The notes: generated by a model from the letters alone, not told the origin. 61,651 nucleotides of DNA from a virus (IMGVR_UViG_3300038696_000188:1-61651), one strand, 5' to 3'. Positions 1 to 24,791 are shown, counted from the stretch's first letter. Made by a program: numbers and translations.

Positions 1-83
1 TTCTCGACCCAGCGACCTCAGCACTTGAGATTGGCAGGGAAGCCTCTCGAGTGCTGACGGAGGTGGGACGGCGTAACGCCTGA
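1..83 (+). CDS. 3' end of a partial hypothetical protein
   Basis: Open frame LDPATSALEIGREASRVLTEVGRRNA ends in TGA at 81-83 and is followed by a hairpin at 124-164. Confidence 0.4.
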   Translation, partial: LDPATSALEIGREASRVLTEVGRRNA

Positions 84-123
84 CCACCCGAAAACTAGCA
101 CCGTCCATGCTAGTTGGGATATC

Positions 124-164
124 GGTGAGGGCAGGCTTTTATACCTTTCGTGCCTGCCCTCACC
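124..164. terminator. Stem-loop, terminator-like
   Basis: 13-bp inverted repeat GGTGAGGGCAGGC (124-136) / GCCTGCCCTCACC (152-164). Confidence 0.6.
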
Positions 165-172
165 ACTCCCCC

Positions 173-213
173 GACACACCGATTTGACAAATGTCACATA
201 TCCAATATAGACT
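173..213 (+). promoter_or_regulatory. Early promoter, type example (GACAC-N6-TTGACA-N18-TAGACT)
   Basis: Same architecture recurs with -35 at 762, 1099, 1731, 2073, 2412, 2619, 2963, 3363, 3693, 4325, 5010, 8318 (+) and 7147, 7532, 9479, 10025, 10471 (-), spacer 17-18 nt. Confidence 0.85.
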
Positions 214-260
214 TAGTACATCGAGCAAGACCGCTCGATAAACAACTAGGAGGCTAGCAA

Positions 261-581
261 ATGGCTATCACCGTTACCACCACCAGCACCACCACCACCA
301 ACGCTATCGAGTTGGACACCGAGGCTCGCACCCTGGTGAACGAGTTGCGGACACTCCGCGACCAGTCCACCGCCATCGAGAAGCAGAAGTCGGCAATCCG
401 CGACCAGCTTCTCGAGACCCTGGGCGACGCCGACGTCGGACTCGTGGACGGCGTTGTGCGACTCCGCCAGCGTGACGAGGTTCGCCGTAGCGTGAGCTAC
501 GCTGAGCTTCTGGCGCTGTTCCCCGAGGCGTATGAGGCGGTCATCAGGGAGAACACCTGTAAGAAGCTCGACATCAAGTAG
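261..581 (+). CDS. Hypothetical protein resembling the C-terminal region of YqaJ-type viral recombinases
   Basis: RBS AGGAGG, own promoter, N-terminal coiled coil then LGDADVGLVDG...LALFPEAYE. Confidence 0.8.
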   Translation: MAITVTTTSTTTTNAIELDTEARTLVNELRTLRDQSTAIEKQKSAIRDQLLETLGDADVGLVDGVVRLRQRDEVRRSVSYAELLALFPEAYEAVIRENTCKKLDIK

Positions 582-593
582 GGCTCCTGAGCG

Positions 594-613
594 CCCCCCT
601 CTTCGGAGGGGGG
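594..613 (+). terminator. Hairpin with UUCG tetraloop
   Basis: CCCCCCTC-TTCG-GAGGGGGG just after the 261..581 stop. Confidence 0.7.
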
Positions 614-664
614 TTGCTCGCACCCCTAGGGGGTAAAAATTTCAGGGAACGGAAGGACGAAAAA

Positions 665-760
665 ATGACAACTATTTATATTCACTGCTGGCGTTGTGGC
701 GAGGCTATGGCTATCGCGGAGCGCGACTACACACACGGGAAAGCCTGCGGAAAGTGTTGA
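665..760 (+). CDS. 31-aa CxxC...CxxC zinc-ribbon microprotein
   Basis: RBS GAAGGA; MTTIYIHCWRCGEAMAIAERDYTHGKACGKC (translated by hand). Confidence 0.65.
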   Translation: MTTIYIHCWRCGEAMAIAERDYTHGKACGKC

Positions 761-818
761 TTTGACTTTTTGTATTTTGTAGTTTAGACTAAATACATCA
801 CAACGAAAGGGGTTCACA

Positions 819-1043
819 ATGAGCCAGAACAACATCACGGAGTACGAACTGGAAGAACGGTTCGACGACTACCTCAACAACTTCAACACTGTCTGTGTGG
901 GACTTGTCGGGGAGTCAATCACTATCCCCGCCTCACGAGTCGTGAAGCTTGCTGACCCCACGGCGTACCGCACGGGGCTGGCGAACTACGCGGACTACCT
1001 GGAGCGCGACTTCGGTATCACCACTTGGGGCTACACAAGCTAA
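819..1043 (+). CDS. Hypothetical phage protein
   Basis: Own promoter (762-790), leader CAACGAAAGG; KLADPTAYRTG motif. Confidence 0.8.
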   Translation: MSQNNITEYELEERFDDYLNNFNTVCVGLVGESITIPASRVVKLADPTAYRTGLANYADYLERDFGITTWGYTS

Positions 1044-1155
1044 GCGGGCACGGCTCGCCCCCTCAGGGGGGCGGGCTGCTTGCGTGGCAAGAGTCGATTT
1101 GACTTTTTGTATTCTGTAGTTTAGACTTTTATTACCAACAACGAAGGGAAGCATT

Positions 1156-1389
1156 ATGAATGAACGAGTAACTTCTGTAACCTACATTTGGAAAGACTCT
1201 GATGTCCCTGGGGACACGGAAGCCCAAGTCGTTATCCTCAACGACAGCGACAAGTATGACCTGATGTCTGCGGACGATAGCTTTGATGAGCGTATTTGGT
1301 TCTACTTCCAAGACGAGGCTGAGTTCCAACGAGCCTTTGACCCCACGGACGATGAGTTCGAGTTTGTGCTCACGGGAGGGCTGAGCTGA
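1156..1389 (+). CDS. Small acidic hypothetical protein
   Basis: Own promoter (1099-1127), RBS GAAGGGA. Confidence 0.8.
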   Translation: MNERVTSVTYIWKDSDVPGDTEAQVVILNDSDKYDLMSADDSFDERIWFYFQDEAEFQRAFDPTDDEFEFVLTGGLS

Positions 1390-1607
1390 TGGACGAAATA
1401 AAAAACGTGAAGGACGTGATGTTCGTGGGAGACTACTTCACGCTCATTACAAGCATACAGTTGGACGAAAGCCTGCGCACGGACGAGGACAAGGACGACG
1501 ACGATTTTGCCGTACGCCTAGCCTCTGTGTGGCTCGCGGAGTTCTACGGCTGGGACGTACTGGAAGCCTCTAACGAGGTTGGCGTGGTCGAGAGAACTCC
1601 CGAATAG
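1389..1607 (+). CDS. Small acidic hypothetical protein
   Basis: TGATG overlap with the previous gene; RBS GGAGG. Confidence 0.8.
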   Translation: MDEIKNVKDVMFVGDYFTLITSIQLDESLRTDEDKDDDDFAVRLASVWLAEFYGWDVLEASNEVGVVERTPE

Positions 1608-1790
1608 GGGTAAAAATATCACGGTACTCTGGTAGTACCCGCACGGGGTCGATGCTATCCCCCGTGCGATGAGCGGTTGCTACCCCGCGCACTTCCCCCC
1701 ACTTCCCCTGTGGGGGTGAGGTGTGTCGATTTGACAAGTGTCAAGTGTCAATGCTAAACTAAATATATCAACCCAACGAAAGGACAAAAA

Positions 1791-1982
1791 ATGACTTACA
1801 AATACAACCCCACACTGCGTGACCTGCGTGACGCTTATTTCGTGGCTCACGGCGCTAGCTCTGACTCCCTGCTTATCGGGGTGCTATTTGCTCATCTACC
1901 TGCCGACACGGTTGAGCGCTTGTATGTTCAGGCTCTTGATGTAGTCCGCGAGGACTTGGAAGCGCTGGATATCTCAGCGTAA
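1791..1982 (+). CDS. Hypothetical protein
   Basis: Promoter 1731-1760, CAACGAAAGGA leader, terminator at about 1985-2024. Confidence 0.8.
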   Translation: MTYKYNPTLRDLRDAYFVAHGASSDSLLIGVLFAHLPADTVERLYVQALDVVREDLEALDISA

Positions 1983-2133
1983 CCAAAAAAAAGGAGCGCC
2001 CCCCCACGGGGGCGTTTCTTTTTTGTCTGCCCTAAAATTTTTACCCCCCCGACAACATAGCGACACGCCGATTTGACTTTTTAGAGTGTGTACCCTAAAC
2101 TATATACATAAGCACAACAACCAGGAGGACACA

Positions 2134-2379
2134 GTGAACAACACAATCACTTGCGGACACTGCGACACCGCGATTGCTGACCAGGAAGTCTACGCTGACG
2201 ATTCTGGTGAGTACCACCAGGATTGCCAGGACGCCTACAACGAGCAGGAACAGCGCACCTGGGGCGCCCAGTACCGCGCCACCGCCAAGCCCGCACAGGA
2301 CGACCACGGCTACGATTGGGGTGACCCCAAGAACAGCGCCTACATCGAGTGGGCGACAGACCAAGCGGACGCCCGATAG
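2134..2379 (+). CDS. Hypothetical protein with CxxC...HxxC metal-binding motif
   Basis: GTG start after AGGAGG (start re-called from 2086); promoter 2073-2101. Confidence 0.75.
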   Translation: MNNTITCGHCDTAIADQEVYADDSGEYHQDCQDAYNEQEQRTWGAQYRATAKPAQDDHGYDWGDPKNSAYIEWATDQADAR

Positions 2380-2468
2380 AACACGGGGGGCGCAAGCCCC
2401 CCCACACCGATTTGACAAGTGTCAGATGTCAATGCTAAACTATATACATCACCAGGAAAGGGGACAAA

Positions 2469-2579
2469 ATGGAAAATCCATTTGACAATCCAGACATCAT
2501 CAACCAGGACGCCATCGACGCGATGGACGACGACACCGTCAAGACGGTGTGGGAAATCCTGACTAGGGCGGGCTACTAG
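2469..2579 (+). CDS. 36-aa acidic microprotein
   Basis: Promoter 2412-2441, RBS GAAAGG; MENPFDNPDIINQDAIDAMDDDTVKTVWEILTRAGY; hairpin follows. Confidence 0.75.
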   Translation: MENPFDNPDIINQDAIDAMDDDTVKTVWEILTRAGY

Positions 2580-2681
2580 CCCACGGGGGGCGCAAGCCCC
2601 CCAACCCCCAAACCCGATTTGACTTTTAGAATTTTATCCATTAGACTTGATACATAACCACCGAATGAAAGGAAGTGGCTT

Positions 2682-2897
2682 ATGTCAGGATATGTTGTCC
2701 TCACACCCCGCGGGATTCTCGCACAATCGAGCAAGAGGGAACCCCTAGTGTTCGACACGCTACGCACCGCCCAGACCTATGTCTGGGGCAAGGACTACGA
2801 TGGTCGCAACGCGTGGTTGATATACCCCACACCCCCCAACACCGTGGACAATGGTCGCCTAGTGACCCCCACAGACTTGATGCGACTAGTTCCCTAG
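2682..2897 (+). CDS. Hypothetical protein
   Basis: Promoter 2619-2647, RBS GAAAGGA. Confidence 0.7.
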   Translation: MSGYVVLTPRGILAQSSKREPLVFDTLRTAQTYVWGKDYDGRNAWLIYPTPPNTVDNGRLVTPTDLMRLVP

Positions 2898-3016
2898 TCG
2901 CAACAGACTAGCCCCCCTACGCACTCGCTGCTAGGGGGGTTAGTTGTTTGTACAATACCGATTTGACAATGTCGGTGGTCGTCAGTAGACTAGGTACAAC
3001 AACGAAAGGACACACA

Positions 3017-3241
3017 ATGAGCAACTATCCTGAGGGCGTCACGGGCAACGAGTGGCAAATTACTGGTGCGAGTGGACACGGGTCAGATACGCAAGAAGTA
3101 CAGTGCGGTAACGAGGATTGCGACGCTTTTGAGCGCCTAGAAGAAGTAGAGGGCGAAACAACCCTATGGGAAGACGAGGGGCTTTTCGAGTGGGTGTGCC
3201 TCACTTGTGGAACCCCCGCCAGTGCGGACTACACACCCTAG
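3017..3241 (+). CDS. Acidic zinc-ribbon protein, YPEGVTGNE family copy 1
   Basis: Promoter 2963-2991; ATG after CAACGAAAGGA; CxxxxC and WxCxxC. Confidence 0.8.
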   Translation: MSNYPEGVTGNEWQITGASGHGSDTQEVQCGNEDCDAFERLEEVEGETTLWEDEGLFEWVCLTCGTPASADYTP

Positions 3242-3420
3242 CGACAACCCACACCCCCGCTAGACGGGGCGACACGCTCGACGAGGACTAGCACGGGGGG
3301 CGCAAGCCCCCCAACCCCCTAGGGGGTAAAAATTTGGAGGAATATAGCCAAGACACACCGATTTGACAATGTCGTATGTCTGATATAGACTGTAAACATC
3401 ACCCCAACGAAAGGAACCTA

Positions 3421-3678
3421 ATGTCTGGATACTACCCCGAGGGCGTTACAGGAAATGAATTGGCGATTGCTGGACCCGACAGCGAGAAGGAAGCCACACG
3501 CGAGACTTGGTGCCGAAACCGAGAGTGCGAGGATTACACCGTCCCCCAAGAAATCGAGGGCGATGAGTGGACACACGGCGGTGAAGTCTTTTTCGATTGG
3601 ACTTGCCCCGAGTGTTCCAAGTGGCACCAGGACGAAGACGGCTACGTCGACCCTATGGGCTACCACCCCGACCTATGA
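3421..3678 (+). CDS. Acidic zinc-ribbon protein, YPEGVTGNE family copy 2
   Basis: Promoter 3363-3391; ATG after CAACGAAAGGA; paralogue of 3017. Confidence 0.8.
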   Translation: MSGYYPEGVTGNELAIAGPDSEKEATRETWCRNRECEDYTVPQEIEGDEWTHGGEVFFDWTCPECSKWHQDEDGYVDPMGYHPDL

Positions 3679-3748
3679 GGGGACAAGCCGATTTGACATT
3701 CTAAAGTATCTACACTAAACTAGGTATATCACAACGAAGGGACACACA

Positions 3749-3877
3749 ATGCAAATCATCGCCACCTACCCCGACTTCAAGACCGTCACCGTATCGGTAG
3801 ACCCCTGGGACGCCGACAGAGTGACAGAATCGTTTATAGAACAGGGAGTACTGTTCGTCACAACTAAAGAGGATTAG
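3749..3877 (+). CDS. 42-aa microprotein
   Basis: Promoter 3693-3721, leader CAACGAAGGGA, hairpin after stop; MQIIATYPDFKTVTVSVDPWDADRVTESFIEQGVLFVTTKED. Confidence 0.75.
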   Translation: MQIIATYPDFKTVTVSVDPWDADRVTESFIEQGVLFVTTKED

Positions 3878-3945
3878 GACACGGGGGGCGCAAGCCCCCC
3901 ACGCCCTGGGGTAAAAATCTCAGGGAACTACGAAAGGACAGAACA

Positions 3946-4107
3946 ATGGGAACCTACCTAAAATATGTATTCATCACCGCACTCACCACAGGGATATTCC
4001 TATCCTTCCACGACACCTACTGGACTTACGCCATCTACCCCGCAATGATTGTCTGGGGAATGATTGCCCTGGGTCTAGCGTTAGAGCGGAGAGAACGCGG
4101 AAAGTAG
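3946..4107 (+). CDS. 53-aa membrane microprotein
   Basis: RBS GAAAGGA; two hydrophobic segments and a basic tail. Confidence 0.65.
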   Translation: MGTYLKYVFITALTTGIFLSFHDTYWTYAIYPAMIVWGMIALGLALERRERGK

Positions 4108-4156
4108 CCACACTAGTGTAGTTGCGCTTGCAGGGTTTTTGATGTATACTTTATGT

Positions 4157-4315
4157 ATGACAAAGCATAAAGGAATCGAGAACCCCGAATACGCAAAGGC
4201 TATGGCAGAACTACGCCGTAGTGGCGCTAGTGGAACCCACGCGGACAAGCGAGAGAAGCGTGCCCGAACACGCGGAGCGCAACTACGCCGTGCCGTGCGT
4301 GAGCAACACGCCTAA
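4157..4315 (+). CDS. 52-aa Arg-rich basic peptide (leaderless)
   Basis: TTGCGC-N17-TATACT-N6-ATG; MTKHKGIENPEYAKAMAELRRSGASGTHADKREKRARTRGAQLRRAVREQHA. Confidence 0.7.
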   Translation: MTKHKGIENPEYAKAMAELRRSGASGTHADKREKRARTRGAQLRRAVREQHA

Positions 4316-4381
4316 CACGCCGATTTGACTTTTTAGATTTTATAGTTTAGACTAGAGTAACAACGAACGAAAGGACAAAAA

Positions 4382-4528
4382 ATGCGAGTAACAATTTTAG
4401 ATAACTGCGGAGCAGTCACGCGGTACCTGTTTGACCGAAAGTACTACAGGGCGCTGGGGGATTTCTACTCACGGCTAACCCAAGAAGGAAAAATTAGAAC
4501 CTACACAATCTTCCTCAACGAGGAATAA
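4382..4528 (+). CDS. 48-aa microprotein
   Basis: Promoter 4325-4353, RBS GAAAGGA. Confidence 0.7.
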   Translation: MRVTILDNCGAVTRYLFDRKYYRALGDFYSRLTQEGKIRTYTIFLNEE

Positions 4529-4637
4529 AGAACACCTTCCCTGGTGCGCCCCCCTGACCAACCCCTTTCGATGTGACCCTGGTCGGGGGGGCATTTTCTT
4601 GCCCCTAGGGGTAAAAATATGAGGGTAAACTATAGGT

Positions 4638-4883
4638 ATGTTAGAGCCAGTCATCTTAGACCTAAAAGAACACGACAACCAAACAGGGAACCCCTACACG
4701 GTTGCCATAGTCGATGACCCCAACGATGGAAAGACCAAGTTGGTGACCATCTTTGATGGAGAAGGCGACTACTCCGTACTCTCGCTAGACAAACTTATCG
4801 AAGAAGAGAACATAGACGAGCAAGGCAACGAAAACGCAAAGTTTATTGTCGATTTTATTCTCGCAGCGCTTGTCAAGGGGTAA
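4638..4883 (+). CDS. Acidic hypothetical protein (leaderless)
   Basis: TAAACT-N6-ATG. Confidence 0.7.
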   Translation: MLEPVILDLKEHDNQTGNPYTVAIVDDPNDGKTKLVTIFDGEGDYSVLSLDKLIEEENIDEQGNENAKFIVDFILAALVKG

Positions 4884-5044
4884 AAATTTCAGGGAAGATG
4901 CGCTGCGGCTGCGCAACTTGTAAATAACTTCTTTTGTTTCGTTGAGGTTTTTGGTGCAGGTTTTACCACCGCCACCACCGCCACCACTAGTACCACTGAC
5001 CACTGACACTTGACTTTTACAGGAAGGTGGTATAAACTATTTTT

Positions 5045-5248
5045 ATGGAGAGACAAAAGAAAAGCGAACGCTACGCGGACGAAGCAAGCAAACTCTACGC
5101 AACCATCGGGTTGTCCGTAGAACAAGTTGCAAGTTATCTAAAGATTGACTACCGTACAGCACGCGAGGCTATCCAACTAAGAACACAACTACGTGACCCA
5201 AGCGCACGACTTGTGGGTCGCACAAGACCAGACAGGAGCACAAAGTGA
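5045..5248 (+). CDS. Helix-turn-helix DNA-binding protein (leaderless)
   Basis: LYATIGLSVEQVASYLKIDYRTAREAI HTH pattern; TTGACT-N17-TAAACT-N6-ATG. Confidence 0.7.
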   Translation: MERQKKSERYADEASKLYATIGLSVEQVASYLKIDYRTAREAIQLRTQLRDPSARLVGRTRPDRSTK

Positions 5249-5400
5249 ACCTAAGGAACATTGTATGGACAGCAGTAGTAGCAACTATTGCTGGACTTGC
5301 TGGGCTTATCGTAGCGCTAGTGACTGACCACACGGACATCGTGTTGGCGCTTGCTGGAATTGCGATTGCGTCATCTTTCCTCTCCGCACGGGAGAAGTGA
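5245..5400 (+). CDS. 51-aa two-TM membrane protein
   Basis: GTGA overlap, RBS AGGAG, two hydrophobic helices. Confidence 0.65.
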   Translation: MNLRNIVWTAVVATIAGLAGLIVALVTDHTDIVLALAGIAIASSFLSAREK

Positions 5401-5426
5401 GAATAAACAACTAGAAGGAGAAAAAT

Positions 5427-5822
5427 ATGTGGCTAATGAGTGAAACAGGATTTGTAAGTGCGGTAACGCACTGGGACAACCCCGAAATTATTGTTGTACG
5501 GGCTAGGGACTACGACTCCCTGACCCTTATCGCGGACTTTGCTGACCAGACTGTGAAGCACACCCCCGATAACGACTACCCCGCCCGCGTGGAAGTACCA
5601 CGCACCGTCTTTGCTGAGTGGGTTACCACGCAGATTGAGAAAATGACCTACAGCAACTACAAAGACAGAATGTACAGCACACGGGGGCGTGACTTTACCC
5701 AAGCGCTTAGTGATGTGTGGAGCACAATGCACAAAGTAGAAACAGCACGGTACCCCGAGCAAGAAGAAGAAAAAAAGGCAGAAAATAGGTACCAAGCATT
5801 GTCTTGGTACCGCGGTTACTAA
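5427..5822 (+). CDS. Conserved hypothetical protein
   Basis: RBS AAGGAG; MW...GFVSAV...VRAR...DYP.R pattern; terminator at about 5836-5871. Confidence 0.8.
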   Translation: MWLMSETGFVSAVTHWDNPEIIVVRARDYDSLTLIADFADQTVKHTPDNDYPARVEVPRTVFAEWVTTQIEKMTYSNYKDRMYSTRGRDFTQALSDVWSTMHKVETARYPEQEEEKKAENRYQALSWYRGY

Positions 5823-5937
5823 GCAGTAAGCCTAGAAAAGAGCCCCCCAAGCAGTTGGGGGGTTTCTTTTTGCCCTAGGGGGGTAAAAATTCTAGGTTAT
5901 ACTGTAAAAGCAGTCGTCCAACAAACAAAGGAAAGAT

Positions 5938-6429
5938 ATGACTGATAAAAAGCAAAACCGTATTGCCCGCGATGGCGACGGTGACGGTCTGGTTGAGGAC
6001 GGCACAGTGTTTGAGCGTCCCGAAGGATTTGTCATTGACGCGGTTGATGGTGACGGCGATGGGCTTGTCCAAGATGGAACAGAGTTCGAGCGTCCTGTTG
6101 CGGAGGCAACCGTAGTACCAGAAAAGAAAAAAGCACCTAAGTCTGATGAAGGAAGCGTGGCTTGGTCGCAAGATATGTCTGTTTCTGTATCTAAACTGGT
6201 GTTCGAAAGTTTGTTCGAGCGTAACTCACGCTCTGTCGGGCTAGTACAGATTAGGCTTGTCGAAAAAGGCTATATGTCTGCTGGTTCAGATAGGCGTGGC
6301 TGGTTGAGCACTGGAACAAAGGAGGCGCTAGAGTCCTACGCCAAAGACAAAAGCATTACGGGTGCGTACAACACGGACGCTGTTGTGCGTTCATTGTTTG
6401 AGCGTACACCCGTAACTATCGCTGTCTAG
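5938..6429 (+). CDS. DxDxDG-repeat protein with a peptidoglycan-binding-like C-terminus
   Basis: Two DGDGDGLVxDGTxFERP repeats; SVGLVQIRLVEKGY...GTKEAL resembles PG_binding_1. Confidence 0.6.
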   Translation: MTDKKQNRIARDGDGDGLVEDGTVFERPEGFVIDAVDGDGDGLVQDGTEFERPVAEATVVPEKKKAPKSDEGSVAWSQDMSVSVSKLVFESLFERNSRSVGLVQIRLVEKGYMSAGSDRRGWLSTGTKEALESYAKDKSITGAYNTDAVVRSLFERTPVTIAV

Positions 6430-6531
6430 GATAAAATATATAGTACAACATAAAATCAAAACCCGCTACTTGCTTTACAATAGTAAGTGGCGGGTTTGAT
6501 ATTTTTACCCCCTCTAACCTACGGAGGAATT

Positions 6532-6780
6532 ATGTCTTGGAATAAAACAAAAGATATTGCTGGGCGAATGGTTGCGGTCTTCATCGCCACCGCGCTGGGC
6601 GTTATCGGCACTGGTGCGCTTATTGGCGTGGAAGTTTGGCAAGCAGCGTTGATGGCTGGTATTGGTGGCATAGCCACGGTGCTAGAGGGTCTTAGCCGTG
6701 CGTACCTGAAAGATGGCAACCTAAGCGCCGATGAGATTGACACGGTGTTCGCGAAGTCCGAGTCTGACCTACCAGACTAA
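6532..6780 (+). CDS. Two-TM membrane protein, putative holin
   Basis: ATG after GGAGG; two TM helices and a charged C-terminus. Confidence 0.55.
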   Translation: MSWNKTKDIAGRMVAVFIATALGVIGTGALIGVEVWQAALMAGIGGIATVLEGLSRAYLKDGNLSADEIDTVFAKSESDLPD

Positions 6781-6833
6781 CTAGTACAACAAAAAGCCCC
6801 CTAGCGCTTGCTGGGGGGCTTTCTGCTTTAGGG

Positions 6834-7094
6834 CTAGAGTCCGAATCTCTTCTGTTGCTTTCTGACCTGCCTAGCCGTGAATCGCATATTCTTTGGTGCG
6901 TCGTATGTCTGTCGCTTGGGGCGCTTGATGAGTCGCTTTATCCACCCGAAGAAAAAGTCGTCTACCGCCAAAGCACCCGCGTAGACTAGTTCGTCCATTA
7001 TGGGGCTAGAGTTCCTGCGACGCTCTTTCCTCAGGGTTGCCGTTACGCGCTGGGTAGTCCCAACTAGCATACTGTCTGGTAATCCGTAAGTCAT
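6834..7094 (-). CDS. Basic hypothetical protein
   Basis: Minus-strand promoter TTGACA(7147)-N18-TAGAAT; RBS GAAGGAG; start re-called. Confidence 0.6.
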   Translation of the reverse strand: MTYGLPDSMLVGTTQRVTATLRKERRRNSSPIMDELVYAGALAVDDFFFGWIKRLIKRPKRQTYDAPKNMRFTARQVRKQQKRFGL

Positions 7095-7261
7095 TTTGAC
7101 TCCTTCCGTATGTACTAATTCTAGGGCATAACCCCCACGCTTGTCAAGTCTAAACAACAAAAAAGATTTTATGTAACACCGTCAAATTTTTACCCTCAAC
7201 ACGGTTACTCTCGCGATGGGCAAAAGAAAAGCCCCCCAAGCGGGGGGCTAGTCTTTAGGCG

Positions 7262-7474
7262 CTAGGCGTGGTAGTTGTCCGCGTAGACTTCTTCGCAGTT
7301 GTCGCAGGTTGGGCGCTGTCCGCCCAAGTGCCAAGCCAATTCCTTGATGAGAGTATGACGCTTGGCGTCGTAGTCTGCTTGCGGGATAACGCCCAAGCAG
7401 TAGTCTTCGTGGGCGTCGTCACCCGCGTTGTCGCAGATTTCGTAGTGGACGCTGGTGGTGAGGATTGTGGTCAT
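7262..7474 (-). CDS. Small Cys-containing hypothetical protein
   Basis: Promoter TTGACA(7532)-N17-TATGCT; RBS GAAAGG; CDNC motif. Confidence 0.7.
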   Translation of the reverse strand: MTTILTTSVHYEICDNAGDDAHEDYCLGVIPQADYDAKRHTLIKELAWHLGGQRPTCDNCEEVYADNYHA

Positions 7475-7616
7475 TTTGTACCCCTTTCAGTTGGTATACC
7501 CCAAGCATAAAGCAGATTGTTTCTAATGTCAAATTGCTAACATCTCGGGCGTGTCGGCAGCACGCGCCGGAAATAGCTAAGGCCCCGGTGGTTAGCCGGG
7601 GCCTTCTCGCGGTGCG

Positions 7617-7952
7617 CTACCGGGTGACGTGGTGGGCGGTGTAAAGCCACTCGGGGAAGTCATTCTCCCGCATGTAGTCCTCACCTTCTGTGGTCAGACT
7701 AACGTCTAGGTACTGGTCACAGTGGCACGCTACGGGGGAATCTGTTTCTCCTTCTCCAAAGAGAATGGGGTAGGCGTAAAACCCGGTGTCATCCTCTGCG
7801 GTGCCACCGTGCTCCCACGTCAATCCCCACCGTCGAGCGAATTCCTCGGCGTGCTCTTCGCATGAGTAGTCCATGAAGTCACCGCTATCGTGCCCCACAA
7901 CATATGGGGGCAACAGCTTCTCCGTGGGTGCGGTCATGGTTGAATCTGACAT
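7617..7952 (-). CDS. Acidic hypothetical protein
   Basis: RBS GAAGG; CEEH and CHC motifs; hairpin downstream at about 7580-7604. Confidence 0.7.
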   Translation of the reverse strand: MSDSTMTAPTEKLLPPYVVGHDSGDFMDYSCEEHAEEFARRWGLTWEHGGTAEDDTGFYAYPILFGEGETDSPVACHCDQYLDVSLTTEGEDYMRENDFPEWLYTAHHVTR

Positions 7953-8103
7953 GATTACCTTCTCTCTGTGTATTTGTTACTTACAGCTTATCATAGATAC
8001 GACAAAACACCTAATCGACATAATTTATTCTCGATTAGGTTATTTACACAATGTGTGCAATAATGGTACTACACCGCACAACTACACAGGGAAAGAGGAG
8101 AAC

Positions 8104-13107: not shown

Positions 13108-13148
13108 GTTTGTAACCGTATTCCGCCAAATTGACGAGGAGCCCCCAC

Positions 13149-14876
13149 GTGGGTATTTTTAATAAGGAAGAGCCACCAGTAGCGAGCAACCTTGGTGCTG
13201 CCACTCGGAAGAGGAAATCTACTTCTGGCCGTTCCATGTCTCGTTCTACGCAGATGGTCTCTGCCCCTGGTTCTCAGCCTGGTCTTTTTTATAACACTCC
13301 TGCTCCTGCCGCTTATAACACTCCTAGGTCTTTAACTGCTGCTGCTGCGCAGGTTAAAACTAATGATAAGGGCGAGTTCGAGCAGTTTAAGGCTCGCCGT
13401 TCTGCTTCGTCTTCTGCTTGGCAGGCTGAGGCGTGGGAGTATTACGATGCTATTGGTGAGATTAAGTATGCTTTTAACCTGGTAGCTTCTGTTGTTTCTC
13501 GTATTCGGATTTATGCGGCTGCTGTTGATGACCCTAGCCAGGCTCCGATTCCTGTTGATGAGTCTAGGGTTGTTGACCCTAATCTTGCTGCTGCTGCTCA
13601 GCGTGCTTTGAATCGGTTGAACTCTGCGTATGGCGGACAGCCTGGTTTGTTGAAGGATGCGGCTCTTAACTTGGCTGTGTCTGGTGAGTGTTATTTGGTT
13701 CAGATGCCTGCCCGTAGGGGTACTGGTGAGCCTGAGTCTTGGGATATTCGTTCTGTTGACGAGGTCATTGTTGATGGTCGTGGGCAGTATAACGTTATTG
13801 GTCGCCGTGAGCAGGCGCAGGGTGGCAAGATGAGTGGGGGTGTTACTGCTCTTGGCAGTAAGGCTTTTGTTGGTCGGATTTGGCGTTCGCACCCTCGTTA
13901 TTCTGATGAGGCTGATAGTTCGCTTCGTGGTCTTTTGGACCTTTGTGCTGAGCTTTTGCTTCTTAACCGTACTTTCCGTGCTACTGCACGTTCTCGCCTT
14001 AACGCTGGTGCTTTGTATCTGCCTGATGGTCTTTCTGTCGCGGCTCAGGGTGACCCTGAACTTTACGACTCTGAGGATGGGATTGGCTCTGGTGTGACGG
14101 CTGAGGAGGCAGAGGACGAGTTCGAGGAGCAGTTGATTGATGCGATGACGACTCCGATTCGTGATGAGGAGTCTGCGTCTGCTGTTGTCCCACTGATTAT
14201 TCGTGGGCCTTCTGAGCTTGGTGATGCTATTAAGCAGTTTAAGTTTGAGCGTTCTTTTGACCCTGCTTTGGCTTTGCGTGCTGACCGTGTTTTGGAGCGC
14301 ATCATGCAGGGTCTTGATGTTCCTAAGGATATTGTTACGGGTCTGGCGAATGTGAAGTATTCGAATGCCCTGCAGATTGATGAGTCTTTGTATAAGGCTC
14401 ACATTGAGCCTCTCATGCTTCTTATTGTTGACGCTCTTACTGTTGTGTATCTTCGCCCGTATCTCACTGCTAATGGGTACACAGATGAAGAGGTTTCTCG
14501 TATTACTGTGTGGTATGACCCCTCAGCGGTCTCCACACGTAACGACAGGGCCACGGACGCTGATGCAGGGTTTGACCGTGGTGCAGTGTCTTCAGACGCT
14601 TGGCGACGCGCACACGGCTTCTCAGACCAGGATGCTCCGACACCTAACGAGGTTGCTCTTCGTATGCTCACTGAGCGTGGGGTTTTGACTCCTGAGTTGA
14701 CGGAGGCAATGCTTGCCGCTGTTTCGCCTGAGATGATGAACGCGGTGCGTGGTGCACAGCAGGCTGCGTCTGTTGCGCCTTTGCCTCCTGATGTTGAGGA
14801 TGCTTTGAAGAGCGCTTCTCCTGGTGCTGCTGGCGCATCTGATGCTGGCACTGATGATTCCGCTGGAATAGAATAG
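13149..14876 (+). CDS. Portal protein
   Basis: WQAEAWEYYDAIGEIKYA and HPRYSDEADS motifs of cluster-B-like actinophage portals; position; GTG after GAGGAG. Confidence 0.85.
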   Translation: MGIFNKEEPPVASNLGAATRKRKSTSGRSMSRSTQMVSAPGSQPGLFYNTPAPAAYNTPRSLTAAAAQVKTNDKGEFEQFKARRSASSSAWQAEAWEYYDAIGEIKYAFNLVASVVSRIRIYAAAVDDPSQAPIPVDESRVVDPNLAAAAQRALNRLNSAYGGQPGLLKDAALNLAVSGECYLVQMPARRGTGEPESWDIRSVDEVIVDGRGQYNVIGRREQAQGGKMSGGVTALGSKAFVGRIWRSHPRYSDEADSSLRGLLDLCAELLLLNRTFRATARSRLNAGALYLPDGLSVAAQGDPELYDSEDGIGSGVTAEEAEDEFEEQLIDAMTTPIRDEESASAVVPLIIRGPSELGDAIKQFKFERSFDPALALRADRVLERIMQGLDVPKDIVTGLANVKYSNALQIDESLYKAHIEPLMLLIVDALTVVYLRPYLTANGYTDEEVSRITVWYDPSAVSTRNDRATDADAGFDRGAVSSDAWRRAHGFSDQDAPTPNEVALRMLTERGVLTPELTEAMLAAVSPEMMNAVRGAQQAASVAPLPPDVEDALKSASPGAAGASDAGTDDSAGIE

Positions 14877-15384: not shown

Positions 15385-16310
15385 TGTCTGATTGGGATAA
15401 CTTGGAGCGTGGCAAGCCTTTTGTTGTTGCGTCTGCTTCTGTTGTCCCTAAGGGTAAGATTCCTACTCCGAAGGAGTTGTACGCATCATTGTCGGCAAAT
15501 AGTGCGGCTCGTGAGGAGCTCCGCGCTGAGGCCCCTGATGGTTACCACTATATGCCTGATGGCGAGCTGATGAAGGATTCGGAGCATGAGGCCGAGGAGT
15601 TTGCTGCTAAGCGGAATCGTACTAAGGCTCAGACTCCTGCCCCTAAGAAGGACCAGAAGAAGGGGTCTTCTGAGAATAAGAAGGGTTCTGCTGCTGGCGG
15701 TAAGAAAATTACTTTTTCTAAGTCAGTTGAGGCTTCTTTGCAAAATAAGGTTGCAGAGCACAATGAGAAGGCTTCTAAGGGGCGTAGAGCTTCTTTGGGG
15801 ATGTTGAAGGCCGTGTATCGACGGGGCGCTGGTGCTTATTCTACAAGTCACCGTCCTGGGCAGTCTCGTGGTGGTTGGGCTATGGCCCGTGTTAACGCGT
15901 TCCTTCGCCTGTTGAGGTCTGGTAAGCCTAGTAAAGCTGCTTACACTCAGGATAATGACCTTCTTCCTTCTGGCCACCCCAGGGCGTCTAAGAAGGGCGC
16001 GTCTGCTGATTCTTTGCTTGCTGGTGGCTCTTATTTAATTCCTGAGGAAAAGGATTTGGTTTCAGCTGCCGTTGAGCACGACCTTACTGTTTTGTTGAAA
16101 GATAAAGACGATTATTCTTCTACTGAAGAGGCTATACTTAATTTTACAGAGTACATGGGTCTTGGATATGAAACAGAGTTTGCGGTTAGAGCCAGTTGGC
16201 TTCGTGCGGTTCGAAATGGGGAGAGCCCGTTTCAGCGTGTTCGGATGCTAGCTACGATGACTTACGACAGTTTGGATGCAGACCTCCTGCCTAAGGAGAA
16301 CAATGCTTAA
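15384..16310 (+). CDS. Head-module protein with DUF5824-like domain
   Basis: LKAVYRRGAGAYSTSHRPG...WAMARVNAF motif; TAATG coupling to dps. Confidence 0.7.
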   Translation: MSDWDNLERGKPFVVASASVVPKGKIPTPKELYASLSANSAAREELRAEAPDGYHYMPDGELMKDSEHEAEEFAAKRNRTKAQTPAPKKDQKKGSSENKKGSAAGGKKITFSKSVEASLQNKVAEHNEKASKGRRASLGMLKAVYRRGAGAYSTSHRPGQSRGGWAMARVNAFLRLLRSGKPSKAAYTQDNDLLPSGHPRASKKGASADSLLAGGSYLIPEEKDLVSAAVEHDLTVLLKDKDDYSSTEEAILNFTEYMGLGYETEFAVRASWLRAVRNGESPFQRVRMLATMTYDSLDADLLPKENNA

Positions 16311-19300
16311 CATTTTCAATAGAGGGAAGAAGTCTTCTTCTCCCGCTAAAACTGCGGTAGAGAAAATTAATGAGTCTGCTCTTGCTTTGATTGTTTCAGC
16401 TAACGAGACGCAGCGTGGCGGTCGGTTGGTCACTAAGGGTGCCGCGTTGGAGATTGTTCGTCGTTCTTTGGTGAAGAATCGGGATGCTACTTTTTCGGTT
16501 AAAAAGTTTCACGCTTTAAAAGATGTTTCGGAATATGTATCTTTGGCGCAGCGTAACAAAGTTATTACTGCTTCTGCTGCCCATTTTGACTTGTTGCCTG
16601 TTGGGCACCCTTCTTCGGCTCGTTCTCACTCTATGTCTGATGAGGATGTGATGCGCTCTCGTGCTCGTTGGTATGCGGATGATTCTATTGTCACTGATGA
16701 AGTAGTTTATTCTTTGTTGGCTGCTGCTTTTGTTTCAGATTCTTCTTCTCCTGAGTACATTTATGCTGCAGCACGTTTGGCTGCTATGGGCGCGTCTCGG
16801 GTGCCTATTGATGCTTTGGTTGCGGCTTTGGGCTTCAATGATGGGGCTAACCGTGGGTTTTGGCGTAGGCAGCTTCGTGACCCTAAGGGTCGTTGGGCGA
16901 GAATGTTTGGCCTTATTAAGACTTTGGTTGATGTTGGTGGGCAGGTGCGTCCGCAGTACACAAAAATTGTTTCGGCTGACCCGAACACTAATAGGGTCCG
17001 CTCTATGCAGCCAGATGGCAGGATTATTGATAGCCCTGTTGAGTCTATTGATGCTGATGTTAAGGCTGTTATTCCTGGCGATGAGTCTCCCGATGGTATT
17101 GCTAGTTCGCCTGCCAGGTTTGAGACGGGTGACCCTATCACTAGTGTTGCTGATTTGGTTTATGTTGACGAGCCTCACGGTTTCTCTCGTAAGGGTGCAC
17201 CGTCTAGCCCTGAGGGGTTGGATGTGGATAAGTTTGAGCGTGTTTGGGAGGATGAACTCGGCAACTATCAGGTTATTCAGGGAAACTTTCGTGAGGGCGA
17301 GGGTTCTGAGTTTGTTGTTTCTCGTTTGGAGCAGGAGCAGGTTGTTCCAATTGGTGTTGGTAAGAACTGGTTTGATGCCGCAAAGATTGTGAGCGCCGAT
17401 GAGCTTAACTTCCAGAAGGGCGATGATGCAGAGCCAAACATCCCTGAGGGGTTTGACATTGGCCCAGGGGCTAGGGAGGATATTAATCCTGCGGATTTGA
17501 GTTCTGATGAGCTTGCTGCTGGCTATGGTTGGACTAAGTCTGATGGTAGGTACAATCGTGATGGGTTTGATATTGAGGAGATGCCAGATGGCAAGTGGCT
17601 TCTCACTGAGACTGGCGAGGGTGGCGAGTCTCGCGAGAGTGGACCTTTCGATGGTCCTGCCGATGCTTTTGAGCAGGGGCAGATTGATTCTGATGGTCCA
17701 GAGTTTGACCCTGGTGCTGTTGTAGATTTCCGTAATGACCAGGCTCCGCCTGAGACCCCCGAGCCTGTGGCACCGCAGGGGGAGGGGTTTTATGATGTTG
17801 ACCGTGGCCCGTATGAGCCGAAGGGGCCTGGGGATGGGGCGGAGTCTGAGGACTACACTGATGACCCGACCGAGATTGCTCAGCGGTTTGAGTCGAGTGA
17901 TTTAGAGAGTGCCCTTGAGGAGTCTGTTCGTAATGGTTCGGGGGAGGGGCTTCTTCCTTTCCAAGAGGGTGACGAGTATGTTCCCGCTGAGGCAATGTAT
18001 AACGCTCTTAAGGAGCAGGACCGCGACCCCGATGCTTTGTTGGATGACATTTACAGTGGCGATGTTGCTGTCCCTGACCAAGTAGACCTTCCTGGCGATG
18101 TCCAGGATTCTGTTGAAGACCAGGGTCCAATTACTGCTGAGCAGGTTGCCGAACTTCGTAGCGAGCAGGACCTCCCCGCTTTGCTTGACGGGCTCAATGA
18201 TGAAGAGCTTGCTGATGTTATCAATAACAAGGATTACAGTCCGTATCTTCCTGGTAACGATGAGTTTGATGTTCCTGAGGGCATGTATGAGATTGACTCA
18301 AACCCTTTTGACCCTAACGCTGATATTGCTCCTGATGACGCTCCTGAGGGCGCACCTAATAATCCTTATGATATGGCAATGGACATGTCTACTGAGGATT
18401 TGGAGAATGGCTTGCGGGGAGCTATTGCTGTCGACGAGGACTCTGACCGTCTTGGCTACTACCCGATTGTTGCTTTTGATGAGGACGGCGAGGAGTATTC
18501 TTATGATGCTCCAGCTGAGGCTTTCCGTGATGCCCTCCAGTTGCAGGGGGTTGACACCAACGAAATTTTGCGAGAAGCTTATTCAGATACCGAACCAACA
18601 CCTGACGAAGCAGCAGAGATGCTTGATGGTGAGAATATAGAGGAGACAGATAGTGGCGGAGAACCAGGAGCAGCAGACGGTGACGCAGGCGGACAGGGAC
18701 AGCGCGGCGAAGGCGTACCCGAACCAGACGTGGACGGACGAGGAAATCAAGATGGCGAAAGCCCTTGGTCATCTCTAGGTAACCCTCTCCCTGAGGCGGC
18801 TAGCGCCCAGGATATTAGGGATAGGGACCTCCCTACTCCCGAGATTTTTGAGCTTGACCCCGAGACTGATGCTGATGCTTTTGAGGCTCAGATGCAGGGC
18901 CTGAAGAAAAACAATGACTATGCTGCTTCGGTCTTTGTTTATGAGCCTGAAGAGTATCGCGAAATGCGGTTGTTCTCGACTGAGGATGGTACTGCTGGCT
19001 TTGCGTTGAAGCCTAGCGGGGACATTGTTTCTGTGTATGTTTATGGTAATTCACCTCATAAGAAAGCTACGGCTTCGATGCTTGCTCAGGCTGTGGAGTT
19101 GGGTGGGGACCGTCTTGACGCGTATGACACGGTTCTTCCAAAGATTTACGCTGAGGCTGGGTTTAAGCCTATCTCTCGCGTAACCTGGAATGATGCGTTT
19201 GCGCCCGAAGGTTGGGATAAGAAGACTTACGCTAAGTTCAATGAGGGTGAGCCTGATGTTGTTGCTATGGCGTATGACCCTGACCGTTTGGGTAGTAAGT

Positions 19301-22300
19301 ATGACCCAACGGAGGGCGAGGTTTTTGCTGATTACGATGAGGCTATGGCTGCTCGGGATGCTTCTATTGATGGTCCCGATGGCGTTGCTGAAAGCCCATT
19401 GGGTAGAACTTACGACATTTCCGATTGGGAGCAGGTAGGCGGGCAGTCTGGCTCTAATCAGGGCGGATTGTATCGTGATGCCGACGGCAATGAGTATTAC
19501 GTTAAGTTTCCGCCACAGAAGCAGCTCCGTAACGAGCTTCTCGCTTCGGCTCTTTATGAGAAGGTTGGTGTTCCTGTTGGTCGTGTCTATCTTGGGCGTG
19601 ACGCAGATGGCAAAGAGGTTCTTGTTTCTCCTATGCTTAAGAACTCCGAGTCTTTGCAGGACAATCTTGATAACCCTGACGCTATTGAGGGTGCTCGACT
19701 TGATTTTGCAGCGGATGCTTGGTTGAATAACTGGGATTCTGTTGGCCTTGTTTTTGATAACATGGTTATGGCTGACGAGAATGTGGCGGGTGTTGGCAGG
19801 CAGCTTTACCGTATTGATGCGGGTGGGTCTTTGTTGTTCCGTGCGCAGGGTGGCGACAAGGACCTCCCTGAGGATGTCAAGCTTATTGATACTTTGCGTA
19901 ACCCAGATATGAATCAGCAGGCTGCCACTATTTATGGTGACATGACTGATGAGGACATTAAGTTTAGTGTTCAGCGGATGCTCCCTGGCGCTACTGACGC
20001 AAATATTGATGAGCTTGTTGATTCAGCTTTCCCCGATGACACGGAGACTGCGGACTTGCTTAAGGAGCGCCTTAAGTCGCGCCGTGATTATTTGATTGAG
20101 CGTTTTAAGCCGTTGACTCCTGAGGCGTTGGACAATGCTGTTGCTGGCGAAGAGGAGACTGTCCGCTTTGATAGTTCGCCTGAGTTGGACAATGCTGTTG
20201 CGGGTGAGGAGCAGGCTTACTCTGAGCAGCTTAAGGAAGCTCAAGAGAATGTTGACGAGTCTTTCGCTGACAGTCCTTTAGTTCTTGATTTTGATGGTGA
20301 CGTTGAGGCTCAGGTTAATGATGCCATTGAGAATCAGAGGGACCTTGTCTTTTCGTATAACGGGGTTGACCGCATTGTTCGCCCTGTGTCGGTTGAGACG
20401 AACGAGAACACTGGCAATACAAACATTTCCGCTGTTGATGGTGATGGCAACTTTAAGAAGTTCACCATTTCGAAGATGTCTTCGGCACAGGATTCTGACA
20501 ATACTGTTGGTGACATTGTTGGCGAGGACTCTGGGGGCGATGAGATTGAGACTTCGGATGCTGTTGGTGCTGGTTATGAAGCAATCAAGAGCCAGTATTC
20601 TGCTGAGGAGCAGGAGGTTCTTGACAAGATTTTCTCGACTAAGGATGCAACTTCTGAGGAGCTCGAGAGCTTTGGTGAAGAGTCTGATGTAAATGATGAC
20701 ATAACAACAGACTATGTCCAGAAGATTGACTCTTACGACTCTGATGCCCCTGTGGTGTCAACTCCTGAGCAGAAGGTTATGGCTGACGCTGTTGAGGAGC
20801 TTATCAACCCTGAAGAGGGTGCGCAGGCCGCTGAGGCCAACGCAGCCGAAATTGCGGCGCTTTACGACAAGCTGGTTAATGGGATTAACTCGCCTGATAA
20901 CACGGAGTCCGACATTATTTGGCAGCGTGTTCAGGACGAGTACGAGGGAACTCTTCTGCCCAACGGACACATAGTTGTGTCTTCGACGATGCATGGTGAC
21001 CGTCGCTATGATGTTGTGGTTCGCCGTAATAACGACAACACGTTCCACATTTACCACCGTGTCACTTACCCCGATGGCTCAACTAAGGTTAAGGAGATGG
21101 GCGGTCAGGGCTGGCATTCAGCTGAGGCTCTGTTCTCTCGCGTTGACAATCAAATCTTTAATTCAAAGAGCCGCCCGAAGACAACGGTTAACAAGGGTCT
21201 AAAGCAGGAGAACGACAACACTCTCTACGCCGACACCTCAACTCCGACTCAACCTGGTAGCTATGTTGCTGCTGATGGTTCTGTGGTGAAGAAGGGTGAC
21301 CGTATTACGGTTGTTAACCCCACTCACAGCAAGTTTGGTGTGGGGGGCCGTATTGTTAGTACGAAACGTAAGTACAGTTCTGATGGCAAGAAGTACACAG
21401 ACTATCTCCGCGTTCGCTATGACGATGGCACTAAGAACAATATTGTTTCGACGAGTGTTGTTCCCGAGGGCAACGCGACTCCTGCTCCGTCCACGTCGTC
21501 TAAGACACCAAAAAAGCCAGCAGTTAAGACGCCAGTTACGTCGCCCGCTAAGACGAAATCTGGTGCTCCAATTCTTCCGCCACCTCTTGGAACAAAACCA
21601 TTTGGTCCTACTGTTACAGCGGCAAACGCTGTTCCTGGTGACCGTCTCGACCTCAAGGAGTCTTTAGCGCTCCCGCTAGGTTCGGTTGTGAGGTCTGGTG
21701 AGGGGCGCTTCTACTCACTATTTAATTCAGAGAACAACGTATGGGTAGACATCTCTAATGACTTTACGCATAATCTCACAGAGAGCGACCGAGCAGTGTA
21801 CATCGCACCTAACAAGGACGCGGCTCTTAACGAGGTGGGTCCCGAGGTTGAAAATCCTTTAGAGAGCGGTGCCTTACCCGCACCTTCTTCGTGGACTGTT
21901 GCGACAACCAACGCCGAGGGGGATGCACTCGATGAGTTTACGCTTCCTTCTGGTGACTTGGTAGTTGACGCTAGACTTTATATGCACAAAAAGAATCGTC
22001 ACTATTTGAATAAAGACTTTGCGAAGCAGTATGGTTTTGATGGTACGGGCAAACTGCAAGCTGGACTGCAAAAGCTTTTTACTTCACAGAAGAAACCGAC
22101 AAAAGTTCCCTCGACTGGTTTGGTTGAAATCGTGCCAGGATTTATTGTCATGGACGCAAGTCTTCCATCGACCGTGGCTGACATGAGTAAAACACAATAT
22201 ATCGTGGACGATGTTGATTTTAATACTGGAGAGTTTAGTGTGGTTGCTATTACAGGACCTGACAGAACTAAAAGGTTTGTTGGTCTCAGTGGGAAAGATG

Positions 22301-24491: not shown

Positions 24492-24791
24492 ATGATGATT
24501 TCTAAAGGTAAAAAAGTTGTTGACTTTGTCGAAGTTTACTTTTCTGATAAAACACAAGAGCTTATTGCTTTAGTTTACGTTCTTAAGGGTGTTGGGGAGT
24601 ACATCCGTCAGGACGGCATGTGGCTACCTTTTGAAGATATGCCTGAAGAAATTTATGATGGCTCTGAATATGTTGTCCTGGAGAAGGCGGACGCACTTGA
24701 TATGCAACTAAAAGAAAAGTTTGACGAAGGCGATGCAATCTCTCGAGATGAAGTTTTCGCTAAAGGAACGGATAAGTACGATGATATCTAG
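24492..24791 (+). CDS. Small acidic hypothetical protein
   Basis: RBS AGGAG; overlaps the protease start. Confidence 0.7.
   Translation: MMISKGKKVVDFVEVYFSDKTQELIALVYVLKGVGEYIRQDGMWLPFEDMPEEIYDGSEYVVLEKADALDMQLKEKFDEGDAISRDEVFAKGTDKYDDI

Follow-up and report, generated by a model that had tools for sequence, protein, structure and literature searches.

Upstream of a subset of the strong early promoters in the virus record IMGVR_UViG_3300038696_000188, which comes from a salt-lake phage of actinobacteria, lies a short box, cGACAC(G/A)CCG. The same word is the most enriched one upstream of promoters in related phages, where it is kept at orthologous promoters. The record, called here the window, is the whole IMG/VR entry of 61,651 bases and is rated 38% complete. 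Comparison with the published binding motif of the actinobacterial cell-division regulator WhiA supports the box as a credible WhiA-type site, and, judging by the DNA, the window phage and its relatives probably link some of their genes to the host WhiA/WhiB switch. We infer WhiA as the binder, the participation of a WhiB-like (Wbl) protein, and the sign of the effect.

An earlier note on this DNA had drawn attention to GACAC placed 6 nucleotides (nt) before the -35 sequence TTGAC. Exact copies of this composite, GACACNNNNNNTTGAC, are indeed found at 173-188, 2062-2077 and 3352-3367, all on the plus strand; 100 shuffles gave 0.05 copies on average, and not one of them reached three. With one mismatch allowed there are ten matches (4.15 expected), among them the variants GACAA (GACAAGCCGATTTGAC at 3682) and AACAC (AACACGCCGATTTGAC at 4314), which the note had listed at equal spacing; the remaining five (5005, 24077, 39954 on the minus strand, 51811, 58800) lack the CCGAT context.

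The exact sites and these two variants all come from a single family of 11 homologous promoters, so they are not independent draws. The 11 promoters stand in tandem on the plus strand (P1-P11, Table 1). Each carries GATTTGAC (found 12 times in the window, where 2.17 copies are expected; the twelfth is at 11985), a -10 of TAGACT or TAAACT after a spacer of 17-18 nt, and a leader that ends with an AAAGGA-type ribosome site ahead of a small open reading frame (ORF); a consensus scan of positions 1-5200 gives 17 promoter-like sites against 2.9 expected, all 11 cassette promoters included. Upstream of TTGAC, columns -1 to -3 are GAT in all 11 and column -4 is C in ten; the information shared by the promoter copies declines to about -11, the left edge of the box, and further upstream the copies are unrelated. 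Eight promoters read [GAC][AC][CA]A[CAT][AGC]CCGAT, with 5, 5, 5, 4, 4, 3, 1 and 1 of the five core positions matching GACAC, and the other three (P2-P4) read G[TA]GT[TC]GAT. The exact forward boxes are spread over promoter subclasses: P1 falls into a group with P4 and P6, P5 into the TTGACT class, and P9 into a group with P8. The inverted core at P4 occupies 1723-1727, and the P10 box is retained in a mosaic relative (L187, 97% identity over 3398-3755).

The box in the window is longer than GACAC: at P5 it runs cGACACGCCGa, at P1 and P9 GACACACCG. In M. tuberculosis, chromatin immunoprecipitation (ChIP) sequencing and in vitro IDAP-seq gave for WhiA the 8-bp motif GACACGCC, and the same motif was obtained for WhiB2 (PMC13473873, 2026); that paper also cites an earlier ChIP study for CGACACGCCGn and gives cGACACGc for M. 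smegmatis, and the motif of S. venezuelae WhiA is GACAC (PMC3781837). The extended motif, GACACGCC / CGACACGCCG, is matched exactly at 2062, and the sites at 173 and 3352 are GACACACC. Equality at about ten positions with an independently defined WhiA site counts for WhiA as the predicted binder. In the window GACACRCC occurs 12 times (3.48 expected), and the five copies outside ORFs of at least 90 amino acids (aa) are all adjacent to promoters: 173, 2062, 3352, the inverted copy at 1720, and 7548-7555 on the minus strand. Counted in forward orientation, four of the 12 boxes have one of 18 promoter-like sites at most 30 nt downstream, a location that only 0.34% of positions share (binomial 6e-8, though three of the four boxes are paralogous). 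The minus-strand promoter at 7532 is unrelated to the cassettes, and its 18-nt gap is close to the spacing in the WhiA/WhiB target sepX.

There are 369 portal relatives in IMG/VR, and we took the loci of the best 80 of them (L099-L178; 950,079 bases). One, L099, has 99% portal identity to the window, is the same phage, and was left out of all counts, which leaves 79 loci at 73-81% identity; five long relatives add up to 574,620 bases. The closest cultured phages are the large Microbacterium phages Pumpernickel, Cece and A3Wally (major-tail identity about 65%), and the lake phage DSL-LC01, whose host is given only as 'Actinomycetia' in its paper, has 76% major-tail identity to the window phage. 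The relatives' promoter, TTGACAaagTGCAGGAAGGT-n4-TAnnnT (265 sites, 195 unique), differs from that of the window and was defined solely by the spacer word TGCAGGAAGG or GTCAGGAAGG, blind to the box. This spacer word is nearly invariant in the promoters of L100-L178, and the window has one look-alike only, TTGACTtttACAGGAAGGT at 5010 (5010-5043).

After upstream segments at least 60% alike were dropped, 116 sites remained, and 6-mers were counted over the 50 nt that precede the -35. The most enriched is ACACGC, in 24 segments against 0.71 expected (Bonferroni-adjusted p 7e-26), followed by CACGCC (19 against 0.76), GACACG (18 against 0.64), CGACAC (17 against 0.96), ACGCCG (13 against 0.68) and CGCCGA (12 against 0.76); the six tile CGACACGCCGA. 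A logo conditioned on GACAC (27 sites in 26 segments) has C at -1 in 17 of 27, G in 18 and A in 7 at +5, C at +6 in 24 of 27, C at +7 in 21 of 27 and G at +8 in 13 of 27, and these flanks are the flanks of the mycobacterial motif. When the -35 was refined to at least four of six matches to TTGACA, 85 de-duplicated promoters were obtained, with 20 forward and 6 inverted copies of GACAC[AG]C; reversed-word controls gave 0 and 0. In the five long relatives CGACACRCC occurs 20 times and its reversed control 4 times. In orthologous promoters of seven loci (L136, L138, L150, L159, L163, L172, L177) cGACAC[GA]CCG is kept while the flanks drift, and among homologues of the zinc-ribbon gene at 3421-3678 the box stands at 26 nt in L189 and L190 and is absent in L188 and L191. 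Conservation in related phages, which the earlier note had named as a check on its reading, is therefore found, with the same word at the top of the enriched words; the note had set against its own reading a passive carry-over of promoter duplication, with a box not conserved elsewhere, and a box kept in relatives is not merely carry-over within the window genome.

Chance co-occurrence of a short word with promoters is hardly to be credited. GACAC is common enough, for the window contains it 150 times and S. venezuelae about 15,000 times (PMC3781837), but the exact composites (3 against 0.05), the adjusted p of 7e-26 in the relatives and the empty reversed-word controls speak against it. Very unlikely as well is that the conserved upstream stretch is read by polymerase itself, as an extended -35 or UP-like element contacted by the alpha C-terminal domain or sigma region 4, with the likeness to GACAC arising since TTGACA also contains GACA. 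UP elements are A/T-rich, unlike the G/C-rich box word, and in the relatives the word has no fixed distance to the -35 (8-26 nt) and is also found inverted, as would suit a separate factor and not a fixed polymerase contact. What this explanation has on its side is that the invariant part in the window phage is CGAT-TTGAC, not GACAC, and that the C-terminal domain of WhiA and sigma region 4 read GACA alike (PMC10243135).

In the known system the helix-turn-helix (HTH) at the C-terminus of WhiA reads GACAC, and WhiB bridges the N-terminal domain of WhiA to sigma-A region 4; cells contain WhiA throughout growth, but in vivo it occupies its targets only with WhiB (PMC10243135, PMC4850268). WhiA is described throughout Gram-positive bacteria (PMC10243135), and three phage Wbl proteins bound sigma-A region 4 in pull-downs (PMC13013590). 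We give an about even chance to the proposal that host WhiA and a Wbl protein modulate sigma-A polymerase at a subset of the cassette promoters via the GACAC boxes. The cis-element would be cGACAC(G/A)CCG(a), 8-11 nt long and fused to the invariant CGAT-TTGAC 'extended -35' in 11 promoter-gene-terminator cassettes, and would stand either forward at 6 nt (P1, P5 and P9, with degenerate copies at P10 and P11) or inverted at 3 nt (P4, and in other populations P3). Host WhiA would bind the boxes and be recruited to polymerase that carries a Wbl protein, which may be a host WhiB2-type protein or the phage's own conserved WhiB-zinc-ribbon protein; with a Wbl protein of its own, the phage could switch these promoters whatever the level of WhiB in the host.

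The earlier note had also named two WhiB proteins, at 55197 and 56131, and both do belong to the family. Each scores above the PF02467 gathering cut-off of 23.6 (Table 1), and both translations show the four ligands of the pattern Cys-X(n)-Cys-X2-Cys-X5-Cys and the G(V/I)WGG turn, as GVWGG / GIWGG. S. venezuelae WhiB is the best solved relative of the short protein (8dy7_H, E 1.3e-7; 35 bits, against 33 for WhiB1) and of the long one (8dy9_H, E 2.4e-11, residues 7-77; 47.3 bits, against 42 for WhiB7). In the long protein the Wbl domain is followed by a zinc-ribbon-like part, CPxC...CTxC, and then by a basic, Lys/Arg-rich tail; the protein is found at 63-74% identity in four of the five long relatives (L179-L182), with the four Cys of the C-terminal module invariant. 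Pfam recognises only Whib in it and no family for the C-terminal part. The HTH of WhiA type, PF02650, has no match in the window, which covers 38% of the genome. Prediction of a complex between Leifsonia xyli WhiA (1-220) and the long WhiB (1-90), made from a 5-row alignment, scored 0.00 and decides neither way.

The long WhiB also figures in a different account of the binder. A phage protein, chiefly this one, might read the box instead of host WhiA, with the Wbl domain on sigma-A region 4 and the zinc-ribbon and basic tail reaching the box, as in the AT-hook of WhiB7; likeness to the WhiA site would then be coincidence or mimicry, for example in competition with WhiA at host promoters. The conserved CPxC...CTxC module with its Lys/Arg-rich tail on the 178-aa protein, gaps that vary from 6 to 26 nt and would suit a tethered domain, and boxes abutting the -35 at the seat of a sigma-bound Wbl protein all fit this view. 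We nevertheless regard it as unlikely: the ten or so positions agree with a site defined independently for WhiA, the modal spacing equals that of sepX, whose binder is WhiA, the C-terminal domain contains no recognised DNA-binding family, and the AlphaFold2 model of the long WhiB is poor (mean predicted local distance difference test, pLDDT, 59.4).

Regulation by host WhiA, for its part, has a number of findings against it, and the first is the spacing. The sepX promoter was sought in five Streptomyces genomes by GACAC-N0-6-GCCAATT, where GCCAATT is the stretch contacted by WhiB just upstream of the sepX -35 (PMC10243135), and GACACACCGGGCCAATT is identical in two of the five. It reads cGACACACCGG-GCCAATT-GGC-(-35)-17 nt-TACGGT-6 nt-GTG, with TACCGT as an alternative -10; the 6 nt from the -10 to GTG fit sepX being leaderless (PMC10243135), and the downstream ORF is the NCBIfam 'divisome protein SepX/GlpR' (227 bits, cut-off 150). 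We infer a gap from GACAC to the -35 of 14-15 nt, with a -35 of GGATGC or CGGATG and a spacer of 17-18 nt, and this -35 was placed from the -10 and the leaderless start, which lessens the weight of the comparison. In the relatives the forward gaps are 8, 8, 9, 10, 12, 12, 13, 14, 14, 15 (five times), 16, 17, 17, 25, 26 and 26, and the inverted gaps 2, 2, 3, 6, 14 and 42; the mode of 15 equals our reading of sepX. Helical phasing was tried and set aside (Rayleigh R 0.41-0.43 for all periods 9-13; the distribution is simply unimodal). Four of the 20 forward boxes in relatives lie at gaps 8-10 and none at 6, so that the 'exactly 6 nt' of the earlier note is peculiar to the window phage. At P1, P5 and P9 the box is 8-9 bp nearer the -35 than in sepX and in the mode of the relatives, and the sepX-like placement for WhiB bridging is not found there; RCCGAT at 6 nt would cover about the same place as the DNA contact of WhiB in the sepX complex, and a box at 6 nt, or inverted at 3 nt, may clash with WhiB. 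Orientation and spacing do vary among WhiA targets, for which the long linker of WhiA is credited (PMC10243135), so the 6-nt geometry would be unusual and would make membership less likely, though possible. Of the WhiA/WhiB circuit proposed in the earlier note, then, the WhiA-type site stands as credible by its motif, and the 6-nt gap departs from both sepX and the relatives. For the relatives, whose 15-nt gap equals that of sepX, activation is the natural guess; at 6 nt there might be a different docking, or a brake, instead of co-activation of the sepX type.

Promoter strength lies on the same side of the balance. The cassette promoters score 9-10 of 12 against the consensus (TTGACA/T, 17-18 nt, TAGACT), and near-consensus promoters should need no activator. 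In the relatives, box-bearing promoters have better -35 elements than box-less ones (4.93 against 4.20 matches on average, p 0.012, where the box-less set may contain more false sites), which is unlike activator-dependent promoters. The exact core is present in only three of the 11 window promoters, and core identity in the eight CCGAT promoters, 28 of 40 by hand count, is not above spacer identity. Seven of the 12 GACACRCC copies in the window lie inside long ORFs and are probably there by chance. The composite GACACNCCGAT is absent from all five long relatives, promoter-associated boxes are found neither in the first 50 kb of Pumpernickel nor in the 49 kb of DSL-LC01, and the GACACRCC copies of these two phages (6 and 2) are all within annotated genes; promoters with CCGATTTGAC are likewise absent from the same stretches. 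The bacterial WhiBs nearest to the phage WhiB, mostly from Streptomyces and Micromonospora, reach 39-42% identity across the Wbl domain, or 59-63% where the match is short and partial, and are uninformative on the host.

Recombination raises a further difficulty. Public DNA runs that hold stretch 1-4800 are labelled salt lake metagenome, and contigs of four of them (X2-X5) were compared with the window; X1, a possible source of the record, was excluded, and among the 24 runs listed as holding window 1-4800 there is no RNA run. Cassettes are deleted or rearranged in these runs (2988 to 3719 in three of four; 3291 to 3880; 1770 to 3930; 649 to 3396), with the joints at promoter and terminator repeats. 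Recombination at their control elements appears to shuffle the small-gene cassettes, and could homogenise the boxes and keep them alike without selection. Megablast of window positions 1-8000 against the phage collection found no near-identical relatives, and only near-identical or mosaic pieces of the promoter array were found in related contigs. A scan of IMG/VR with the pattern CCGATTTGAC-N18/19-TARACT (93 stretches) found no second promoter array of this kind; among the 80 of 93 stretches listed, 79 have a single match and one has two on opposite strands, and the only related contigs among the matches listed are those behind L099 and L187.

These observations fit an explanation by relics, in which an ancestral WhiA-type box was duplicated into 11 copies, kept alike by recombination, and is functionless at 6 nt. 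The CGAT/TGAT-TTGAC common to all 11 promoters, the gradual decay of the core across the CCGAT promoters, the natural deletions and rearrangements at repeats, the confinement of the array to near-identical or mosaic pieces, and a geometry unlike that of sepX or the relatives all agree with it. Against it are the population variants: A178G, in three of the four runs (X2, X3, X5), turns the P1 box into GACACGCC, and A1092T, in the same three, turns GAGTC of P3 into the exact inverted core GTGTC, so that both polymorphisms within boxes keep or create the consensus. In addition, A2610C in P7 (X3, X5) brings one core position closer to the consensus; the boxes of P5, P9 and P11 show no variant among those listed for X2-X5, where contigs often break at the repeated promoters and power is low. 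Relics would also have to account for a box in both promoter subclasses and inverted at a second fixed register, for the full cGACACGCC at 18 nt from the unrelated minus-strand promoter at 7532, and for the box at a different distance, 26 nt, before the zinc-ribbon gene homologues in L189 and L190. On balance this explanation, too, seems improbable to us.

Broadening the proposal of WhiA/Wbl control from the window phage to its relatives gives a picture that we hold only tentatively and consider somewhat doubtful: a clade of large uncultured actinophages may wire a subset of strong promoters to the essential cell-division switch WhiA/WhiB of the host, with their own WhiB-zinc-ribbon protein limiting and the window phage as a compressed form. 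This would amount to a sigma-appropriation-like system whose DNA-reading subunit is borrowed from the host, and the compressed form would require docking other than that of the sepX complex.

The nearest known systems are the sigma-A promoters of WhiA/WhiB (WhiB2), such as sepX (8DY7/8DY9, PMC10243135) and the M. tuberculosis regulon (PMC13473873), which have the same core GACAC and extended GACACGCC / CGACACGCCG. As in them, the phage box is on the non-template strand upstream of a -35 of sigma-A type, both orientations occur, and a Wbl protein is encoded by the same genome. Unlike them, the putative sites are on a virus instead of the host chromosome, and the window promoters come close to the consensus, while the -35 of sepX (GGATGC in our reading) is poor. 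The WhiB of mycobacteriophage TM4 reportedly represses host whiB2, work that PMC10611076 cites as its reference 72. TM4 offers a parallel in having a phage-encoded Wbl protein, which there interferes with the host WhiB2/cell-division circuit; in TM4, however, a phage protein acts on a host gene, whereas the window phage has an operator of host type on phage promoters and a WhiB-zinc-ribbon fusion. Sigma appropriation by T4 AsiA/MotA has been compared with Wbl proteins (PMC13013590), and we propose a similar arrangement, in which a small protein bound to sigma region 4 and a partner reading an upstream box would redirect host polymerase to promoters of the phage. T4 encodes both proteins itself, and its MotA box takes the place of the -35, whereas the window phage has an intact -35 and would rely for DNA binding on host WhiA or, in the rival account, on the C-terminal domain of the phage WhiB.

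Among the papers retrieved on WhiA/WhiB and phages, judged by title and the start of the abstract, none describes WhiA sites on phage promoters. The window contributes the compressed 6-nt and inverted 3-nt geometry, the comparison of spacing with sepX, the population variants, and the WhiB-zinc-ribbon fusion. To our knowledge, the targets of most actinophage Wbl proteins are not known. These proteins are among the most abundant regulators in actinophage genomes (PMC13013590). Host WhiA sites on phage promoters, if the proposal is true, would give phage WhiBs a concrete target set, and would tie early phage transcription to the cell-cycle, redox-sensitive switch of the host. In nature these promoters come with boxes in either orientation and gaps of 3, 6, 8-17 and 25-26 nt, and they would offer a probe of how much the flexible linker of WhiA tolerates; how the linker copes with differing spacings is left open in the sepX structure paper (PMC10243135).

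Table 1. Promoter boxes and WhiB-like proteins in the window (positions counted from its first base)
Feature	Position	Strand	TTGAC start	Remarks
P1 box GACACACC	173..180	+	184	6 nt before -35 TTGACA (184-189); -10 TAGACT (208-213)
P2 GTGTT	754..767	+	762	one mismatch to inverted core GTGTC; 3 nt before TTGACT (762-767)
P3 GAGTC	1091..1104	+	1099	3 nt before TTGACT (1099-1104)
P4 GGTGTGTC	1720..1736	+	1731	exact reverse complement of GACACACC; 3 nt before TTGACA (1731-1736)
P5 cGACACGCCGat then TTGACT	2062..2078	+	2073	TTGACT at 2073-2078; exact match to GACACGCC and CGACACGCCG
P6 CCCACACCGAT-TTGACA	2401..2417	+	2412	two mismatches in 5-mer core
P7 CCAAACCCGAT-TTGACT	2608..2624	+	2619	without box
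P8 ACAATACCGAT-TTGACA	2952..2968	+	2963	without box
P9 GACACACCGAT-TTGACA	3352..3368	+	3363	exact box
P10 GACAAGCCGAT-TTGACA	3682..3698	+	3693	one mismatch
P11 AACACGCCGAT-TTGACT	4314..4330	+	4325	one mismatch; retained in L099 (99% identity)
cGACACGCC box (GACACRCC 7548-7555; GACAC core 7551-7555) and promoter	7527..7555	-		18 nt upstream of TTGACA-17-TATGCT
Short WhiB-like protein, 94 aa	55197..55481	+		Pfam PF02467, 53.3 bits, E 4.3e-14
Long WhiB-like protein, 178 aa	56131..56667	+		Pfam PF02467, 61.5 bits, E 1.1e-16

The cassettes contain several other repeated elements. In promoters of the TTGACA class the spacer and -35 form inverted repeats (TTGACAagTGTCAA; GACAaTGTC) at 184-200, 1731-1754, 2412-2435, 2963-2975 and 3363-3380; they contain GTGTC/TGTC and look like an operator overlapping the promoter. 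Three nt downstream of the -10, eight of the 11 cassette promoters have a TA(C/T)AT word (TAGACTnnnTACATC; 214-225 in P1), which could mark the start site, act as a discriminator signal, or be another -10 that overlaps the first. An intergenic word, (CTA)GGGGTAAAAAT, is repeated at 626-650, 1607-1625, 2030-2050 (inverted), 3318-3340, 3905-3925 and 4604-4625, at a distance of about 35-40 nt from the start codons that follow it, in cassette genes without a TTGAC promoter (e.g. 665, 3946, 4638), and may represent another promoter class or a processing signal. A terminator-like hairpin, GGGGGGCGCAAGCCCCCC, follows four cassette genes (2385-2403, 2583-2600, 3295-3311, 3883-3899), and its G/C runs differ in length between populations (indels at 3294 and 3307). 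As for the products, none of ten cassette proteins matched Pfam, and two of the ten had weak matches in PHROGs, phrog_434 (RecE-like C-terminal part) for 261-581 and phrog_9294; no relatives of the 261-581 protein were found in IMG/VR.

Elsewhere in the window, two giant ORFs, 16276-23919 (2547 aa) and 24721-29688 (1655 aa), lie between the portal gene (13131-14876) and that of the major head protein (29853-31976), and similar giant ORFs occupy the same place in Pumpernickel and DSL-LC01. A single tRNA-Met (CAT) gene is found at the right end of the record (61538-61613, minus strand).

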